From the NCBI GenBank assembly GCA_963807635.1, contig CAWEDJ010000028.1, positions 32,001 through 96,000 on the forward strand: a DNA stretch of 64,000 bases. The letters are read 5' to 3'. Shown here in pieces: positions 53,306-64,000 of the stretch. The translations under genes and the position numbers were made by a program. The notes beneath the pieces are model-generated. The model made no database searches. It was not told the origin of the DNA and saw only the letters and a program-made list of their open reading frames with translations. Position 1 is the stretch's first letter; every line of letters starts with the position of its first letter. Origin of the DNA: an uncultured cyanobacterium. GTDB lineage: Bacteria > Cyanobacteriota > Cyanobacteriia > Cyanobacteriales > Microcystaceae.

Positions 53306-55231
53306 ATGTTTAAGACCCTTTTTGGCGATCCTAATACCCGTAAATTAAAGAAATTTCAGCCCTACATAGCCGAAGTCAATGTCATCGAAGAAGATATGGT
53401 CGCTTTATCCGATGATGAACTGAAGCAAAAGACGATCGCCTTTCGGGAATTGTTGGACAAGGCAAAAACGGACGAAGAAACCGAGGATATTTTGGACGAA
53501 ATCTTGCCCGAAGCCTTTGCTGTGGTGCGAGAAGCGGGAAAACGGGTCTTGGGGATGCGCCACTTTGATGTGCAATTATTGGGTGGCATCATTCTCCACA
53601 AGGGACAAATTGCTGAAATGAAAACAGGGGAGGGAAAAACCCTGGTCGCAACCCTGCCTGCCTACCTCAATGGCTTGACGGGAAAAGGGGTTCATGTTGT
53701 CACCGTTAACGATTATCTCGCCCGACGGGATGCGGAATGGATGGGACAAATTCATCGCTTTTTAGGTTTGAGTGTGGGATTAGTCCAATCGGCGATGAGT
53801 CCCGAAGAAAGGAAGAAAAATTATGCCTGTGATGTCACCTATACGACTAATAGTGAATTAGGCTTCGATTATCTCCGCGATAATATGGCTACCTCCATGC
53901 AGGAAGTCGTTCAACGTCCTTTTAATTACTGTGTGATCGATGAAGTCGATTCTATTTTGATTGATGAAGCGCGCACACCGTTGATCATTTCAGGGCAAGT
54001 CGAACGTCCAACAGAAAAATATTTACAGGCTTCTGAGATCGCGGCCCAACTCACTAAGGATGAGGATTACGAAGTTGACGAAAAACAACGTAATGTCTTG
54101 ATGACCGATGAGGGTTTTGAAAAGGCTGAAAATTTATTGAAAACGAGTGATCTCTTTGATAAGGACGATCCCTGGGCTCACTACATTTTTAATGCGGTCA
54201 AAGCGAAGGAATTATTCATCAAAGATGTTAACTATATCGTCCGCGATAATGAAGTGGTAATTGTCGATGAATTCACGGGACGGATCATGGTCGGTCGTCG
54301 TTGGAGTGATGGTTTGCATCAGGCGATCGAAGCCAAGGAACGGGTGGAAATTCAACGGGAAAGCCAAACCCTGGCAACCATTACCTATCAAAATTTCTTC
54401 TTGCTTTATCCCAAATTATCGGGAATGACGGGGACAGCCAAAACAGAAGAAACGGAATTAGAAAAAGTTTACAACCTCCAAGTAACGATTACGCCGACCA
54501 ATCGCCCTTCGGGTCGTCAGGATTGGCCTGATGTGGTTTACAAAACCGAAGAAGCGAAATGGAAAGCGGTTGCCCTGGAGTGTCAGGAACTCCACGCAGA
54601 AGGTCGCCCGATCTTGGTGGGAACAACCAGTGTGGAAAAGTCTGAAGTGATCGCGAGTCTCTTGAATGAGTTGGAAATTCCCCACAATATCCTGAATGCA
54701 CGACCTGAGAATGTGGAACGGGAATCGGAAATTATTGCCCAAGCAGGACGGAAAGGAACTGTTACCATTGCCACCAATATGGCGGGTCGGGGTACGGATA
54801 TTATTTTGGGGGGAAATTCGGATTATATGGCTCGCTTGAAAGTGCGGGAATATTTGATGCCGAAGATTGTTCGTCCAGAGGATGATGAGTTGGGCTTTAG
54901 TCCCCAAGGTTTTGGAGGACGCGATCGCCCAGAGGGTTTTGGTCAGGAGAAGAAAAAGAAAACTTGGCGCGTTTCTAAGGATATTTTTCCAACGGAAATT
55001 TCGGCAGAAGCGGAAACAATGCTAAAGGAAGTGGTAAAGTTCGCCGTCTCTGAATACGGTGAGCAGAGTTTGACGGAACTAGAGGCAGAGGAAAAACTCG
55101 CGGTTGCGGCGGAAAAAGCTCCTACCGATGAGCCAGCGATTCAAAAGCTACGGGAAGTTTATAACCTAATTCGTAAGGAATACGAGAAATTTACCAGTGC
55201 AGAACATCAAGAAGTGATCAATCTCGGTGGC
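53306..55231 (+). CDS. secA: Preprotein translocase SecA, truncated at the junction
   Basis: [36 protein letters not shown]; ends at EVINLGG just before the invariant LHVIGTERHESRR. Confidence 0.96.
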
Positions 55232-55260
55232 TGCTCCGCCGTCCTGACTTGCTTCTGCCG

Positions 55261-55291: not shown

Positions 55292-55723
55292 ATGTTCACC
55301 ACGCAACGAAGAGCAATCAGCCCACTTCTCGCTACGGTCATCCTGATCGCCATATGCATCGCTGGAGGCCTGATGGTCTACGCACTCTTCAGCACTTCAA
55401 TGAACACGGCGAGCTCGAAGGCGCAGCTCAACGTAGTGTCTTCACAGCTCGAAAGCGGCAGCCTCATCCTGAACGTGCAGAACGCAGGCAGCAAACCGGT
55501 AACCTCGCTGGCGATGACGGCGCCATCAAGTCTGACGAACTCGACGGAACCTACGATCTCGCCCACCCCGTCAGCAGTCGCCCCGCTCACGCCGGGCCAG
55601 TCGGCCAGCATAACAGTCAGCTACACAGGCGACACCATCGGCAACAGCTACACGTTCGTCCTGACGGCGACCTTCTCCGACGGCTCCGTGTTCAGCTACG
55701 CGGTCCAGGTAACGGATACATAG
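55292..55723 (+). CDS. Archaeal type IV pilin 1 (143 aa)
   Basis: Class III signal RRA|ISPLLATVILIAI; beta-rich domain with NVQNAGS.P, LTPGQS, GNSYTF, FSDGS. Confidence 0.9.
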   Translation: MFTTQRRAISPLLATVILIAICIAGGLMVYALFSTSMNTASSKAQLNVVSSQLESGSLILNVQNAGSKPVTSLAMTAPSSLTNSTEPTISPTPSAVAPLTPGQSASITVSYTGDTIGNSYTFVLTATFSDGSVFSYAVQVTDT

Positions 55724-55802
55724 ACGGGCAAAGCGAACGCCGCAGCGACTCCACCCTCCTTTTTCTGTTAAAAGTGCCCCCAGCATCATCTGTCGAGACA
55801 AG

Positions 55803-58164
55803 ATGGAACACAAGCGCGCGGTCAGCCCGCTTCTCGCGACCGTCATCCTGATAGCCATCACGATCATGGGCGGAGCCGCGGTCTACGCTGTCTTCTCGAA
55901 CCGCTCTGACGTAGCCGGAGACACCCATTCCATACAGGTTGAGAACGCCCAGCTAGTCGATCCGGCGACGGTCAACGTCACGGTGGATTCAGCACCCTCA
56001 GGCCTTACCGACGCGCTCGTCGTGGACGGCGTCACCTACACTGGCCCAGTGACTTTCACCTGGCAAGCGGACACTCAGCATTCGATCGATGCCCTGAGCC
56101 CGATGGGAGGATACACCTTCGTCTCCTGGAGCGACGGGAACGACCAGTCCCACACGATATGGACTAACAACGGCAATGCCAACTACACGGCGACATACGG
56201 GAATGCCAATGTGACGCTCGATACATCCCCGTCTGGCGAGTGGGTCCTGATCGTGGACAACGTGCAATACACGTCTCCTGTGACCTTCAACTGGATCATC
56301 GGAGACACCCACCACATAACAGCGGAGGGCTTCACTGGTTACGCGTTTGACTATTGGAGCGACAACAACACGGACGATCCTCGCAACTTCACGGTGACCG
56401 GAGATGTGACCCTCACTGCGGTGTACGCACAAGCCATATTGGTCGAGATAAGTTCCTACTCATACGATGCAAGGCTTGGCACTGGTGAAGACCAGACGCA
56501 GTTCACAATCGACAATCAGCCTCTTCTCGTGGATGGTGTTAGGACAAACTACGGGTCGTATTTCTACTGGAAGGTCGGAAGCACTCACACATTGCAGGCA
56601 CTGACGTGGTACGGATTCGGCTACAACTTCTCCTGTTGGTCTGGAATACCGACCTACTATTCGTCGATGAACACTTCGAGCCCCTCCATCACCTACACCG
56701 TTGCGGCTAACGATAGCCTCTGGACTTACTACAATATCCCAGCAGTGCGTTTCTGGGCAGACTACAGCGCCGATTGGAATTACATCGTCTCGACTTCAGG
56801 TCCGAACTTCACCATTGATGGTGCCGCCCAGTTGAATGGTGGTCTAATCTGGCTCGATGGAGGGAATCACACCTTCACATTCCCAACGACTTACGACTCC
56901 AACGGATGGACCTACTCTTTCATCGGGAACAACACCTTCTCAAACGGCGATCTCTCCAGTCCGAACAACACGTGGGGCGGATGGCCAACGAGCGTCGAGA
57001 GGATATATGGTGCCCTGTTTGCCGAGTTCTCTAACATATTCGTCGGCGGTCCGGTGCAGATTACTACTTCTTACATAACCAACGTCACTGTCTCCGGCGA
57101 TGTCACGACGGTGTTTGTGGATGTGCCAGACGACCTTTGGATTGGCACGACGAGCTTTGCTTACAACCCAGTAGTGATGCCACTCACTGTCTACACTTCA
57201 TATGTCAATTGGGGCGGCGATTTCAATGCGACGAACTCGGTGTCCATCAACGGCGTTCGGCGTAGCACGACGATCACGATTGGTATCAACCTCGACGGCG
57301 TGTCAGACCCGCAGGTGTCGTTGGTGGCGAACAAGACACTTGTCCTAGGTAACGCTACGCTGTACTTCTGGAATTGGTACGGCAACGACTACACTGGCGA
57401 TATTGGGAATGTCACTTACGTTCTGCATGCCGAGAGCATCTACAGCCTCGGGTATAATACCGAAGTATATGCGTTTTACGATACGGCTCCTCTTGTCAAG
57501 GTCTTCGTGAATGTGGACCCGACTTACATCACGGACAATCGGACTGGCTCAGCAGTGTCCGTTGATGGTTACTCTGGTTATGGCGTAGGCGGGCCATACT
57601 ACTGGTATGCAGGCTCGACTCACAACGTAACTGCAATATCCATTGGTTACAATGTGACTGCCACCCGTTGTTACATTGGCGACTCAAGAGTTCCTGGGAC
57701 CTTCAATCTCGCTTCAATCAGACCAGACACGATGGTATGTACCCCGACGTACAACGTCACGGAGGCGCTGCAATTCTCAAGTTGGTCAGACGGCGGCGCC
57801 ATCAGCCACACCGTCGTGGTTCCTTGGGTTGACAGCATCAACTACACCGCGTTCTACGCCAACTCTACAACACCTCCACCTCCGCCTTCGTCCAGCAAGC
57901 ATTGGATCCTGGTCTTGACGTTGAAGGACACCGGAAGCGTTCCAATCGTCGGCGTCTCGCTCTCCTTCAATGGCTCGATACTCCCCGCGACCTGGATGCC
58001 CAACCCAGCCACCACCTCGATAAGGCCTGGTTCCAGCTTCTCGACGGTATATACTTTCGACAGTTCCGGCATCTTACGCAGGTGGAACCTACGTCTTCTC
58101 CGTCGCGATCACCTATGCCGACGGCTCCACGTTCACGTACTTCATACAAATCGTAGCCGCATAG
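55803..58164 (+). CDS. Giant archaeal type IV pilin 2 (~786 aa) with internal repeat passenger (extra T at 58074/5)
   Basis: KRA|VSPLLATVILIAI. Frame-corrected end GIYAGGTYVFSVAITYADGSTFTYFIQIVAA* (TAG 58162-58164) aligns with the pilin 1 C-terminus. Confidence 0.82.
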
Positions 58165-58277
58165 CACCAACCGGCCGGATCGACGCCCCTTCTTTTGTCC
58201 CTGTTAAAAGTACCTTACCGCATGTCTGTCGGCACAAGATGAAGCACAGACGCGCGGTCAGCCCGCTTCTCGCGACC
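55815..58277 (+). repeat. 27-bp exact direct repeat in pilin 2 and pilin 3 signal-peptide coding, within a longer duplicated promoter/leader
   Basis: CGCGCGGTCAGCCCGCTTCTCGCGACC at 55815-55841 and 58251-58277; shared CTGTTAAAAGT...TCTGTCG...ACAAGATG upstream. Confidence 0.9.
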
Positions 58278-58671
58278 ATCATGCTGATAGCCATAACATT
58301 GGCTGGCAGCCTGCTGGTCTGGAACTTCTTCACGTCCATGGCGCAGACGCAGGGCGAGTCCGTCCAGGTTCAGCTGGTCGACGTGGCGCTGCTCCAGTCC
58401 GGCACAGGCACCACGGTCTTCTCGGTGACCGCCAAGGATACAGGAAGCACGCCCATAGCATCATTGGGCATCCTGCTGAACGGCGCGAGCGTGATGAACG
58501 ATACGGGGCCGGCCCTCCTCCCCGGACAATCGTGGTCCGCCCAGACCACTGCGATGCCATCGAACGTGACGGTGACGATAGGGGAAACATACATCGTGAC
58601 GGCGACCGCGACGACCTCGAGCGGGGGCAGCGCGACCACTTCTCAGAGCGTCCTGTGTCAAGGGGCACTGA
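58239..58671 (+). CDS. Archaeal type IV pilin 3 (~143 aa if GGGG 58662-58665 has an extra G, otherwise reads to 58754)
   Basis: Hidden inside the 983-aa track ORF: MKHRRA|VSPLLATIMLIAI, AKDTGSTPI, LLPGQS, GETYIV; own TATA box at 58204. Confidence 0.85.
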
Positions 58672-58754
58672 GCCGGCTTGGGGCACTTGTCCTGTGTGGC
58701 TACCGACGACCAAGCCCCTCATTGGTTAAAAGCCCTTTGACATGCATTTCCTGA

Positions 58755-60364
58755 ATGAAGGTGCCTCTTTTCGGCGGCCTCTCCGGGAGGAAGCCGCCAG
58801 ACGCCTCATCGTTGCAGTTCAGGATAGAGCAGCTGCCCGTTCAGTTCACGGGGACGGTCCTGGCCGAGTACGACGTCGGCCTCGACCACATCTACATAGT
58901 CGACGAGAACGGCAGCGGGAAGTACATAATCTCCGAGCCCTCTCTCACGGAGGACGAGCGGCGGACCTACTCGTTCATCATGAACGACCTCTACTCCTCC
59001 CTCCCCGGGTCCATGGAGATGGAGGCGGACCCCGTGCAGTACATCGAGAAGCACATCTGGGAGGTCTCGGAGAGGCTGGGCATCGTAGAGCAGGTCAAGG
59101 AGGCGTACCCCAGGTTCAAGTACTTCATCACGAGGGAGACGACGGGCTACAGGCAGATCGACGCGCTCATCAGCGACCCCGACGTGGAGGAGGTGTCCTG
59201 CGTGGGGCCGGGGAAGCCGGTCCAGGTCATACAGAGGGAGTTCACGAAATACGACTGGCTGGAGACGAACGTCGTCTTCGGCACCGAGGAGGCGCTCAGG
59301 AACTTCGTGCAGAAGCTGGCCATGAAGGCCGGCAAGAACGTCACGATAGCGATCCCGTTCACCGACGCGATCATGAAGGAAGGCCACAGGGTTGCCGTGA
59401 CCGTCGCAGGCGAGGTCACCCTCCCGGGCTCGACTTTCGCGATACGCAAGTTCCCCAAGGACCCCTACAGCATCGCCTCCATCCTGAAGTTCGGGTCCAT
59501 GTCGCCCCTGATGGCGGCGTACTACTGGCTTCTCATCGAGTACAGGCGGTTCACGCTGGTCATAGGGCCCATGTCATCCGGGAAAGACCTCCATGATCAA
59601 CGCGCTGGCGACGATGATCGCGCCGAACATGAAGATAGCGACCATCGAGGACACCCCCGAGCTCAACCTTGCTCATTCTCACTGGCAGAGGTTCAAGACG
59701 AGGAAGACGTACTCGATAACGGAGTCAAGGTTCGACGTGGACCTCAACGACCTGACGATCCTCTCGCTGCGGTATCGCCCGGACTACATCATAGTGGGCG
59801 AGGTCAGGGGGGCCGAGATCTCCGCCCTGGTGCAAGCTGCGAGTTTAGGCCACGGATGCATCTCATCCTTTCACGGCGACTCCCCCGAGGCAGCCCTCGT
59901 CAGGATGACGACGCCCCCAATGAACGTCCAGCTCGGCGGCCAGCTGCTCATCTCGTCCTTCCTGATGATGAACAGGGTCCGCGCCGCCGACGGCTCTGTG
60001 AAGAGGCGCGCCCTGGTCAGCAAGGAAACAGTGCCGGACGGCGACAGGCTGCGGCTGGCGGAGATCTTCAGCTGGGACGCGGGCAGAGATGCGTTCCTGC
60101 CGGATGACCCGGACGAAGTCGTCAGGAGGAGCCGCCAGCTGAAGAGCATAATGGGCCTTACGGGCTGGGACGAAGCGAAGCTTGCGGAGGAGCTGAGGAT
60201 AGAGGGCGAAGCTGCTCGGCGGCCTGGTGAGAGATGAAAAGCTGGGCTACAGGGACGTGGCGGAGGAGATCACGAAATTCTACCACGCGCGCTACGGGCT
60301 GGGGGCTGTCGCCCAGCCCGGACTGGCCGAGGGAGAGGGGATGAAACATGTCCCAGCAGGCTGA
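58755..60364 (+). CDS. Type II/IV secretion ATPase, FlaI/VirB11/TadA family (frameshifts ~59584 and ~60200)
   Basis: DPDVEEVSC, STFAIRKF, corrected Walker A GPMSSGKTSMINAL, TIEDTPEL, LRYRPDYIIVGEVRG, SSFHG; corrected tail RAKLL...YRDVAEEITKFY ends at TGA 60364. Confidence 0.9.
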
Positions 60365-62340: not shown

Positions 62341-62808
62341 ATGCCACACCGCAGGGGCGCAAGCGAAGTGCTCGGCGCTCTCGTACTGCTGGCCATCGTG
62401 ATAGCGGCCTTCGGGTTCGTGGTCAGCACGTTCTACGCCAGGACGCAGGAACAGACGGCGAACATCATGGAAGAGTACGACAAGGGGACGATAAGGCAGG
62501 GGGAGCTCCTCACCCTCATATACCACTGGGAGCAGGTGAGTGCCAACCAGACGGTGATCAGGGTCGGGCTTTTCAACGCCGGGTTCTACAACGTATCCAT
62601 ACAGGATGTCTTCATTTCTGGGCAGCAGTCGAGCGACTGGGAGCTTACCGATGCCGACGGGAACCCGATGAGCGCGATCGCGCCACAACAGCTGGCGATC
62701 CTGACGGTAACGGTTCCCTATTCGGTCCCCGGGGCAGGGCCCGGAGGGAGCGGCTACGAGGTCTTCCTCTACGGGACCGACAACCTGGCCTATGTGTGGG
62801 AGCTGTGA
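62341..62808 (+). CDS. Archaeal minor pilin 4 (155 aa)
   Basis: RRG|ASEVLGALVLLAIV class III signal; FNAG.Y.V.I, IAPQQL; TATA box at 62306. Confidence 0.8.
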   Translation: MPHRRGASEVLGALVLLAIVIAAFGFVVSTFYARTQEQTANIMEEYDKGTIRQGELLTLIYHWEQVSANQTVIRVGLFNAGFYNVSIQDVFISGQQSSDWELTDADGNPMSAIAPQQLAILTVTVPYSVPGAGPGGSGYEVFLYGTDNLAYVWEL

Positions 62809-62897
62809 ACTACCCACGACCGAAGTCGTGGGCTTCCCGCTTCCTCGACTGAAACTTGCTTATCCGTCTGACAAGTAGAGGCTCTGTCTCAGCGCGG
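62805..62897 (-). mobile_element. Orphan IS200/IS605 (TnpB) right end / omegaRNA-like scaffold, no transposase or TnpB ORF
   Basis: Minus strand reads GAGACAGAGCCTCTAC...GCAAGTTTCAGTCGAGGAAGCGGGAAGCCCACGAC-TTCG-GTCGTGGG-TAGTTCAC: an 8-bp stem with cUUCGg loop and a TAGTTCAC end, as I recall for IS605 right ends. Confidence 0.75.
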
Positions 62898-63065
62898 ACC
62901 CGTTACAGAAGTGGATCCAGAAGGACTAGTCTACAAGGACTTGAACCAATAGATATCCGGGTGTTACTGATTTGCCTGCATAGAAGACTGTCAGGGAGAG
63001 GCGCCCATGCATTGGCCCCCAGCGAAAGCAAAGTATTATGAACATGACAAGTCACAGGTAGTTCA

Positions 63066-64000
63066 ATGCCCACGAACTCGTCTGCCGGTGCGGCCGGCGA
63101 GAATACCTTTAGTGCAAGGCTGGCGGCACTGCTTCGGCGACGGGGTTTCCCGGACGCCGATTTCGAACGTCTCTTTGAAGTGGTCGACTCGATTACGGCC
63201 AAGAAAGTGCAGCGGAAACCCGATGTGGTGTTCTCGAATGGTGGCGTCAACATCGTCAGTGCGAAGGAAGGGGAGCGCAGGGAGAGAGAGGCCATAGCTA
63301 CTGCGATTGGGTATCTACGTGATATGTCCGCATCGGTCAGGTTGGGAGAGGTCTTCGCTGTCACCTACCCCATCAAAAACAAGGATGAGAAATACCATCT
63401 TCACGTGCTTCCAACTCAGGGTCACCAGGAGGTCTCTCTGGTCCTGGAGAACATGGATGAGGTGTGCAGCGCGATGCTGGAGGCAGTTCAAGGGAGAGTC
63501 GCAGAGATTGAAAGAAGGCAGGAACCTGTGCAAGATGAAGCGAGGCGTATACTACGATATGCGGCCTTCGACCTTTCTGAATCGCTGCGCGGCATTTCCG
63601 AATCAAGCCTTGAGGAGATTTTCGGTGGTCACCATTTCTTTCAGGCCGCATTGGCAACACTGTTGAAGCCAGATGAAAGGATAGAGGCGCTTCATCTAGG
63701 CCCTGCTTATCTCTTCATCGACCAGATACTTTTCTATGTGTTGCTGTCCCAGGCTGCGACTTCATCAGGAAAGCCTCACCTCTATCCGCGCATAGCCATC
63801 GGAGACCGGAATTCCCCCGTCTCGCTGAGTGAGAAATACTTCGATAGAGTGAGGAGCAAGGACTATGATCCGATATACGGACCGGATGTTGCGAGACTGT
63901 TCGAAGGTGCCAAAGTTGGCCAGCCTGTAGAAGAAATCGTGGATACCATAATGGAATTGGGACCAAAATTGGCGGTCCCTGACCTAGTCGGACAGATATT
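63066..64000 (+). CDS. Probable type IIG restriction-modification / N6 methyltransferase, N-terminal part (runs off window end)
   Basis: Not in ORF track. Open for 311 codons: MPTNSS...KPDVVF...IVSAK (nuclease-like), AYLFIDQILFYVLLS, YFDRVRSKDYDPIY, DLVGQI. MTase motifs would lie beyond the window. Confidence 0.65.
   Translation, partial: MPTNSSAGAAGENTFSARLAALLRRRGFPDADFERLFEVVDSITAKKVQRKPDVVFSNGGVNIVSAKEGERREREAIATAIGYLRDMSASVRLGEVFAVTYPIKNKDEKYHLHVLPTQGHQEVSLVLENMDEVCSAMLEAVQGRVAEIERRQEPVQDEARRILRYAAFDLSESLRGISESSLEEIFGGHHFFQAALATLLKPDERIEALHLGPAYLFIDQILFYVLLSQAATSSGKPHLYPRIAIGDRNSPVSLSEKYFDRVRSKDYDPIYGPDVARLFEGAKVGQPVEEIVDTIMELGPKLAVPDLVGQI

Follow-up and report, generated by a model that had tools for sequence, protein, structure and literature searches.

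The window, the whole stretch of 64,000 nucleotides that was analyzed, carries a type IV pilin locus with the gene order pilin 1, pilin 2, pilin 3, secretion ATPase, platform protein and pilin 4 (Table 1). When read through one spurious base from its start at 55803, pilin 2 comprises 786 amino acids, and its Ig-like head is broken after strand A by 645 amino acids of InlB-B-like repeats.

Table 1. Features of the pilin locus and its upstream boundary, in window positions.
Feature	Position	Strand	Evidence or remark
Cyanobacterial secA	53306..55231	+	Pfam SecA_DEAD; truncated by chimeric junction, outside the pilin system
Pilin 1, 143 aa, intact head	55292..55723	+	TIGR02537 above cut-off; UpsA-like below cut-off
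TATA-like box (TTAAAA), 35 nt ahead of the pilin 2 start	55768..55773	+	Five of five TTAAAA on the L007 plus strand lie 29-35 nt before a start codon
Pilin 2, class III signal (predicted cleavage after Ala6) and hydrophobic helix	55803..55907	+	TIGR02537 27.9 bits, cut-off 20; helix 9-35 in model
Pilin 2, strand A of head (aa 42-54), putative donor strand	55926..55964	+	Strand-A profile; unchanged in window, L007 and L008; modelled interface
Pilin 2, repeat 1 (aa 57-133), common to both alleles; 5' allele breakpoint 56200	55971..56201	+	Flg_new_2-like, weak; blastn ends at 56200
Pilin 2, allele-specific cargo: repeats 2 and 3, beta-rich middle, last repeat	56202..57877	+	Repeat profile; X2 bridge; P0213
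Pilin 2, Ser/Thr/Pro linker; 3' allele breakpoint ~57878-57902	57861..57899	+	L007 alignment; X1 and X4 contigs
Pilin 2, C-half of head, strands B, C, C', E, F, G (aa 700-786)	57900..58164	+	Profile, model; one spurious base 58073-58076
Pilin 3, 143 aa; stop hidden by spurious base near 58667	58239..58671	+	Run contigs, L007, profile match
Secretion ATPase, 535 aa in L007; window copy has two spurious bases	58755..60364	+	T2SSE; BasE is the top NCBIfam model, under its cut-off
TadC/ArlJ-like platform protein, 650 aa	60348..62300	+	T2SSF; UpsF 366 bits, cut-off 400
Pilin 4, 155 aa, UpsB-like minor pilin	62341..62808	+	Weak Pilin_N; UpsB 20.4 bits, cut-off 70

The pilin locus and its source

Pilin 2 falls within the archaeal type IV pilin family, with a secretion ATPase and a platform protein encoded in the same locus, and belongs to neither the Ups nor the bindosome system, as the equivalog cut-offs are not reached for UpsA (36-51 versus 130), UpsB (20 versus 70), UpsF (366 versus 400), BasE (341 versus 1000) or BasF (248 versus 1300). 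Pilin 1 is a candidate major pilin, and the family profile matches the solved archaeal pilin 8FK7 with an E value of 2.8e-10. No prepilin peptidase was found among the ORFs listed for L007, one of two related loci (L007 and L008) that come from a single species and carry pilin 2 as two genes, a stub and ORF B. All five TTAAAA motifs on the plus strand of L007 lie 29-35 nt upstream of a start codon (at 1644, 2152, 6104, 6625 and 10203, before pilin 1, the stub, pilin 3, the ATPase and pilin 4), and the genes without a motif of their own, ORF B and the platform gene, have a ribosome-binding motif and overlap the gene upstream. After pilin 4 the locus ends in an element of about 130 nt common to the window and L007, beyond which the two carry different restriction-modification-like genes (region 62800-63998 of the window and 10700-12103 of L007); upstream of pilin 1, L007 has a UvrD/PD-(D/E)XK gene.

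The DNA of the locus is archaeal (Conexivisphaerales), and at ~55,232 the assembly wrongly attaches it to a cyanobacterial contig. This contig, C28, lies in a genome (G000) of ~41% GC and is a chimera, because the GC content steps from ~0.45 to ~0.6 near 55,250, secA is broken, identity with L007 and L008 begins at 55,229-55,232 and a contig from sequencing run X4 differs from the window upstream of 55,235. A domain search of G000 found no SecA_SW wing domain. NCBI proteins labelled Conexivisphaerales archaeon cluster with the ATPase, the platform protein and ORF B of L007. From the join (window 55229-55235, G000:C28:87,230) onward, the rest of the contig (GC 0.52-0.63) continues into transposases, integrases, a sugar ABC transporter and terminase-like genes, apparently of other origin, and high-GC stretches also occur at the start of C65 and the end of C102.

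Contigs from four runs (X1-X4), which are peat or freshwater metagenomes, were aligned to the window. The single base at 58073-58076 is absent from a contig of each of the four runs and from L007, and further single bases are missing from run contigs near 58,667, 59,578 and 60,200; the four gap bases in the 5,063-nt alignment of the window with L007 match these four positions. In addition, the protein P0213 is in frame from insert residue 437 through the C-terminus. The extra base in pilin 2 is an assembly error, present in the assembly and not in nature, and the removal of T at 58074 proposed in a preliminary description of this DNA is therefore backed by four of four runs, L007 and P0213, giving the 786-residue protein. 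The three other extra bases fall in the pilin 3 stop (one) and the ATPase (two). With four extra bases in 5 kb (58073-60200), other frameshifts of this assembly should be treated with suspicion.

Two halves of one pilin head

Profiles of the N-half (helix and strand A) and of the C-half (strands B-G) were built from 62 relatives each, with the rows of the window, L007 and L008 excluded. The N-half profile matches amino acids 6-52 of pilin 2 (55.0 bits) and the C-half profile amino acids 703-784 (33.6 bits), all other matches of either within pilin 2 being at most 1.7 bits; a profile of strand A scores 15.2 at amino acid 42, and its next best score within pilin 2 is 8.3. The two matches are complementary and do not overlap. 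The limits first given for an insert of ~645 amino acids within the pilin head (amino acids 55-699, positions 55965-57899) are confirmed. The pilin-head profile matches 8FK7 with an E value of 6e-14.

An AF2 model from a 74-row alignment, which pairs the two halves by construction, has pLDDT values of 96 for amino acids 41-50 and 94-96 for most of 701-786, falling to 68-82 at 721-740. This model (residues 8..786) overlays the archaeal pilins 6W8U (Z 9.3, r.m.s.d. 2.9, 125 of 140 residues aligned), 8Q30 (Z 8.6, r.m.s.d. 6.6, 131 aligned) and 8FJS (Z 8.2, r.m.s.d. 3.9, 122 aligned), the top Z scores being equalled by unrelated Ig folds. When no alignment is supplied, the model of the 786-residue single sequence is poor (mean pLDDT 35.4, strand A ~40, C-half 42-67). 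The expectation that both halves would form one beta-sandwich was thus borne out with the paired alignment and not with the single sequence. In multiple alignments, MAFFT set strands B-E of the small pilins on repeat 1 in sets that contained the stub, and not in three stub-free sets. From the profiles and the paired model, it is highly probable that strand A and the C-half close into one Ig-like head around the insert.

Cargo of the window allele

A six-repeat profile, built with four of the window repeats included, places repeats at amino acids 57-133, 136-209 and 239-299 and a last repeat in two pieces (565-613 and 654-686). This last repeat (565-686) houses a 40-residue loop with Cys623 and Cys646 at repeat position ~43-45, and ORF B carries ~270 amino acids within one of its repeats at the matching position; the same internal site thus hosts a Cys loop in the window (57495-57860) and a propeller-like domain in ORF B (L007:4439-5506). 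The divergent InlB B-repeat family PF18998 scores 23.3 bits on pilin 2 against a gathering score of 23.6 (E = 6e-5) and is found in seven of eight homologues of a 757-residue query, the remaining one having other families. The likeness to InlB-B repeats that had been suggested is thus borderline by score, and that to Flg_new_2 is weak. The repeats, the PPPPP linker, the Cys pair and the N-x-S/T sequons that had been noted are all present, and 23 of the 25 sequons in amino acids 1-760 fall within amino acids 55-699.

The middle of the cargo (amino acids 312-564, ~250 residues) is beta-rich. No family was found for insert residues 311-565 (none in Pfam; best Atlas score 0.89), and sequence searches gave no solved relative for the repeats or for ORF B. 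The pLDDT of the insert is mostly below 50 in the paired-alignment model. The GC3 of the cargo is 0.61-0.65 versus 0.77-0.90 in the flanks.

A second allele

L007 is 94.9% identical to the window up to 56,200 and 97.2% identical from 57,878 on, and L008 is 95.4% identical up to 56,200. Between the breakpoints, six new codons and a stop leave a stub of 139 amino acids (helix, strand A and one repeat), followed by ORF B, which has 1,152 amino acids in L007 and runs off the end of its contig in L008. ORF B begins with a basic and hydrophobic leader, which may be of type I or class III or remain uncleaved, and contains five repeats by the repeat profile, a Pro linker and a C-half without strand A; its amino acids 140-515 give a BNR/sialidase-like propeller lead (Atlas 0.91). 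The C-half profile scores at best 0 bits on the stub and the N-half profile at best 1.0 bit on ORF B; the stub matches TIGR02537 with 30.3 bits (cut-off 20), and the N-terminus of ORF B has no TIGR02537 match. The stub stop and the ORF B start overlap (TGATG), and GGTGA, which has a background of 1.5 per kb, lies 12 nt upstream of the ORF B start inside the final stub codons that are specific to this allele, where it is presumed to serve as a ribosome-binding site. No TTAAAA box precedes ORF B on the plus strand of L007. All six stub sequences end in the same ADRVSG, and three full-length copies of ORF B share 97-99.9% identity. Between the two alleles, the last repeats resemble each other no more closely than paralogous repeats do.

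The cargo, previously described as swappable, has turned out to be so, since this sister allele holds a different cargo between the same two halves. Contigs of X1 and X4 part from the window at 56,200 and meet it again at 57,902, with ~115 unlike letters upstream of the join, which fits the stub/ORF B allele without proving it; the window's own cargo occurs in X2 and X3, with pieces also in X1. An X2 contig (56,062-56,542) bridges 56,200 with no gaps, and no listed contig or protein piece spans the whole pilin 2 gene.

Among the pilin-like ORFs of 79 loci, the stub/ORF B pair occurs only in L007 and L008; proteins with the C-half alone score ~33 bits and would fall outside the best 150 of 2,552 matches. 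Other ORFs with the N-half alone, in L043, L059, L061 and L071, have no long C-half partner in their locus, two of these contigs being short. Searches with pilin 1 in species genomes gave one locus, a spurious one, from 220 candidate stretches, and searches of viral contigs gave none (0/24 and 0/33).

Loop inserts across the family

The family was surveyed in the best 150 of 2,552 cluster representatives at E <= 0.001, which comprise 64 small pilins, 45 C-terminal fusions, 10 head inserts, 21 helix-less proteins and 10 partial ones. The head inserts lie in the A-B loop (one), the C-E loop (five) and the E-F loop (four), and because 10 of the 150 best representatives carry them, this architecture can be regarded as a recurrent habit of the family. 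Among all 202 proteins examined, 21 other than pilin 2 carry head inserts, with inserts in the three loops and eight other, unrelated cargo groups; cargo groups in relatives include LamG, CBM4/9-like, IgGFc-binding and DUF2341/PA14. P0116 has 265 amino acids exactly in the A-B loop, and the insert of P0057 probably lies there as well, so that relatives with different inserts at the same loop, which had been sought, exist both as P0116 and as the alternative cargo of L007 and L008. The strand order of the model (A, B, C, C', E, F, G) would place the three insert loops and the C-terminus at the pole away from the helix, fitting outward display.

In P0115/P0272, a pilin of 268 amino acids with 14 cluster members, one related repeat-like module lies in the E-F loop. 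P0059, P0131, P0192, P0183, P0071 and P0067 are membrane or secreted proteins that have no class III helix and whose C-termini are made up of one to three complete pilin-like heads. Short members of the P0132 and P0115 clusters were considered as insert-free or split orthologues and rejected as gene-call fragments.

Predicted closure in trans and selection

Stub amino acids 20-139 and ORF B amino acids 1061-1152 were submitted to complex prediction with separate alignments, the median of three runs being taken. The pair scored 0.74, versus 0.01 for the best of three controls, and the mark for such scores, which is roughly applicable here, is reached by 116 of 157 solved pairs and 2 of 215 mismatched pairs. 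The runs agree in at least 76% of contacts, and the pLDDT of the partner is at least 80 in the complex and 46 with an unrelated chain in place of the stub. The confident interface is limited to stub amino acids 39-54, which run antiparallel to strand B and touch the end of G. This score indicates compatibility and not binding, because likeness to solved archaeal pilins can yield a pass.

Strand A has no amino-acid change among the window, L007 and L008 (13 codons, two synonymous changes). The pN/pS of the C-half against L007 is 0.09 (11 synonymous, three non-synonymous), like that of pilins 1 and 3, and that of ORF B between L007 and L008 is 0.19. The stub helix has a pN/pS of 2.1 between L007 and L008 (one synonymous and six non-synonymous changes, mostly hydrophobic swaps). 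The low values across alleles, drawn from small counts, may stem from selection in the fused lineage combined with recombination. On balance, the gene layout and the complex prediction moderately favor closure of the ORF B head in trans by strand A of the stub, which would tether the adhesin.

It is also conceivable, but unlikely, that the cis insertion is right and the two-gene allele is a disruption by a recombined secreted-protein gene, with a stub and a vestigial half-head that do not reassemble. Such an event would agree with the occurrence of the split form in one species only, with the repeats as recombination targets, with last repeats that are no closer between alleles than paralogous ones and with a helix pN/pS that is not below 1. 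Against it stand a coupled stop and start with a ribosome-binding motif in allele-specific codons, a stub and an ORF B that are intact in all retrieved copies, a separate Pro linker before the half-head of ORF B and the score of the stub/half-head complex.

Discussion

The reading preferred here, with a probability of about 0.65, is that pilin 2 is an adhesin mount whose head is completed by strand A, either in cis or in trans. Pilin 2 would be a minor subunit of an archaeal type IV pilus, probably at the tip, and would carry the adhesin. A tip position and a role in adhesion are probable from its size and domain content, and a minor or tip position is favored because an arm of 645-1,050 amino acids cannot pack at every position of the shaft. 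After presumed class III processing, the helix would enter the filament core, and strand A would pair with strand B to close the head; from profiles and model, such closure in cis, with an A-B loop from which the beta repeats and passenger domains extend as a presumably glycosylated arm, is very likely. Two alleles show that the arm can be replaced as a cassette, its flanks being conserved. In the second allele, the chain is cut within the A-B loop and the stub is encoded just before ORF B, a putative, separately exported adhesin; strand A of the stub would then, more likely than not, complete the six-stranded half-head in trans and tether ORF B to the pilus. Cargo would be exchanged by homologous recombination in the conserved flanks. 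The full proposal, in which a truncated pilin donates strand A to the C-terminal head of an adhesin, the locus flips between cis and trans by cassette replacement and the repeats also host domains in a loop of their own, is slightly favored.

It is improbable that pilin 2 is instead a class III-anchored surface or binding protein, as in the bindosome, that uses type IV filament machinery outside an extended pilus, in which case ORF B might anchor itself. The ATPase and the platform protein do score best on bindosome and Ups models, and ORF B has K-G-M-L before its N-terminal hydrophobic stretch, which presumably fits the class III pattern; yet that N-terminus matches neither TIGR02537 nor the N-half profile, and pilin 2 has a complete pilin head under constraint and is flanked by two ordinary pilins that share its promoter motif. 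Binding proteins that class III signal peptidase (SPIII) processes are themselves widespread according to the accessible part of PMC13705601.

An even less probable reading denies domain insertion and takes the C-terminal segment as independent, with strand A loose or on repeat 1. Most of the helix-less heads at the C-termini of other proteins, which would seem to support it, start at profile positions 33-44 and so contain strand A, whereas the C-half here starts at strand B and has no substitute strand. Similarly, the unstable MAFFT placement is opposed by the homology of repeat 1 to the other repeats and not to the head, and the partial folding of the C-half in the single-sequence model by the fall of partner pLDDT to 46 without the stub. 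Finally, an assembly artefact, which a chimeric contig with several indel errors might suggest, is scarcely credible for the pilin 2 gene, as the check for misassembly found it borne out by the ungapped X2 bridge at 56,200, the in-frame join of insert and C-half in P0213 and the same flanks in L007.

With regard to an adhesin mount closed by strand A, the nearest relatives of pilin 2 are archaeal pilins that consist of a helix and an Ig-like head (PMC7347861, PMC10334743, PMC11178852, in the parts accessible). Like the archaeal type IV pilins 8FK7, 6W8U, 8Q30 and 8FJS, it has a class III signal, a helix of ~35 amino acids, an Ig-like head and an ATPase/platform locus; unlike them, its head is interrupted by 645 amino acids or divided between two genes. 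The nearest subsystem is the Ups/bindosome-like 4I neighbourhood, with the locus under the UpsA, UpsF and BasE cut-offs. Adhesin-like and Ig-repeat accessory genes near type IV filament loci are reported in PMC4858521 and PMC13705601, whose accessible portions describe no attachment mechanism and neither of the two forms.

The closest mechanistic likeness is to bacterial PilK-PilC/PilY1, where beta-strand addition is described: one strand, supplied in cis or in trans, completes the pilin sheet and holds a large adhesin in place (PMC13533445, in part). The same source places inserts in PilK homologues between donor strand and acceptor sheet and an insert of ~180 amino acids within the sheet of GspK, with CpaL in the same comparison. 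Strand completion in cis or trans and large inserts between donor and acceptor are common to both systems; however, that system is bacterial with another head fold, and here cis and trans are alleles of one locus. The polarity is also reversed: the donor there is the C-terminal strand of the adhesin, whereas the donor predicted here is strand A of the pilin, with six strands coming from the adhesin. By analogy, pilin 2 would work like PilC/PilY1-PilK strand addition, but it is not a member of that system.

A pilin made from two gene products is known from Geobacter PilA-N/PilA-C (61 and 104 amino acids; PMC11046646, in part). L007 and L008 similarly have adjacent genes for helix and head, whose binding is predicted, but the Geobacter protein is a bacterial major pilin with no cargo of ~1,050 amino acids, and the accessible part of PMC11046646 mentions no fused allele. 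Extra central sequence in type IV filament subunits, like that of pilin 2, is found in Natrialba magadii ArlB3, an archaellin with a large central insertion (PMC10117864, in part), and in Ignicoccus Iho670, the major subunit of an adhesion filament. In Iho670 (5KYH, 303 amino acids), the family profile finds residues 1-49 and, weakly, 281-297, a hint of head inserts in a solved archaeal filament subunit. To our knowledge, there is no split form of ArlB3 or Iho670. Bacterial flagellins likewise have conserved ends that close around variable exposed cargo in their outer domains, with a helical and unrelated fold.

The literature searched, mostly the main text of freely available papers, contains no description of an archaeal pilin with A-B loop cargo or with a split allele. 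The preliminary description had found the architecture unfamiliar; it is not unique, as loop inserts recur in relatives and have printed precedents in GspK and ArlB3. The cis insertion is real but ordinary for the family, and the surprising part is the cis/trans pair of alleles.

These results suggest a possible route by which archaea mount exchangeable adhesins on pili. A strand of 13 residues and a half-domain of 87 residues that occur naturally both fused and split offer a concrete test system, and the inserts of the family map permissive loops for display on archaeal pili. If the proposed mechanism is correct, the cis/trans strand addition of bacterial tip complexes would extend to the archaeal Ig-like head with reversed polarity, and there would be an overlooked class of secreted proteins that end in a pilin head lacking strand A.
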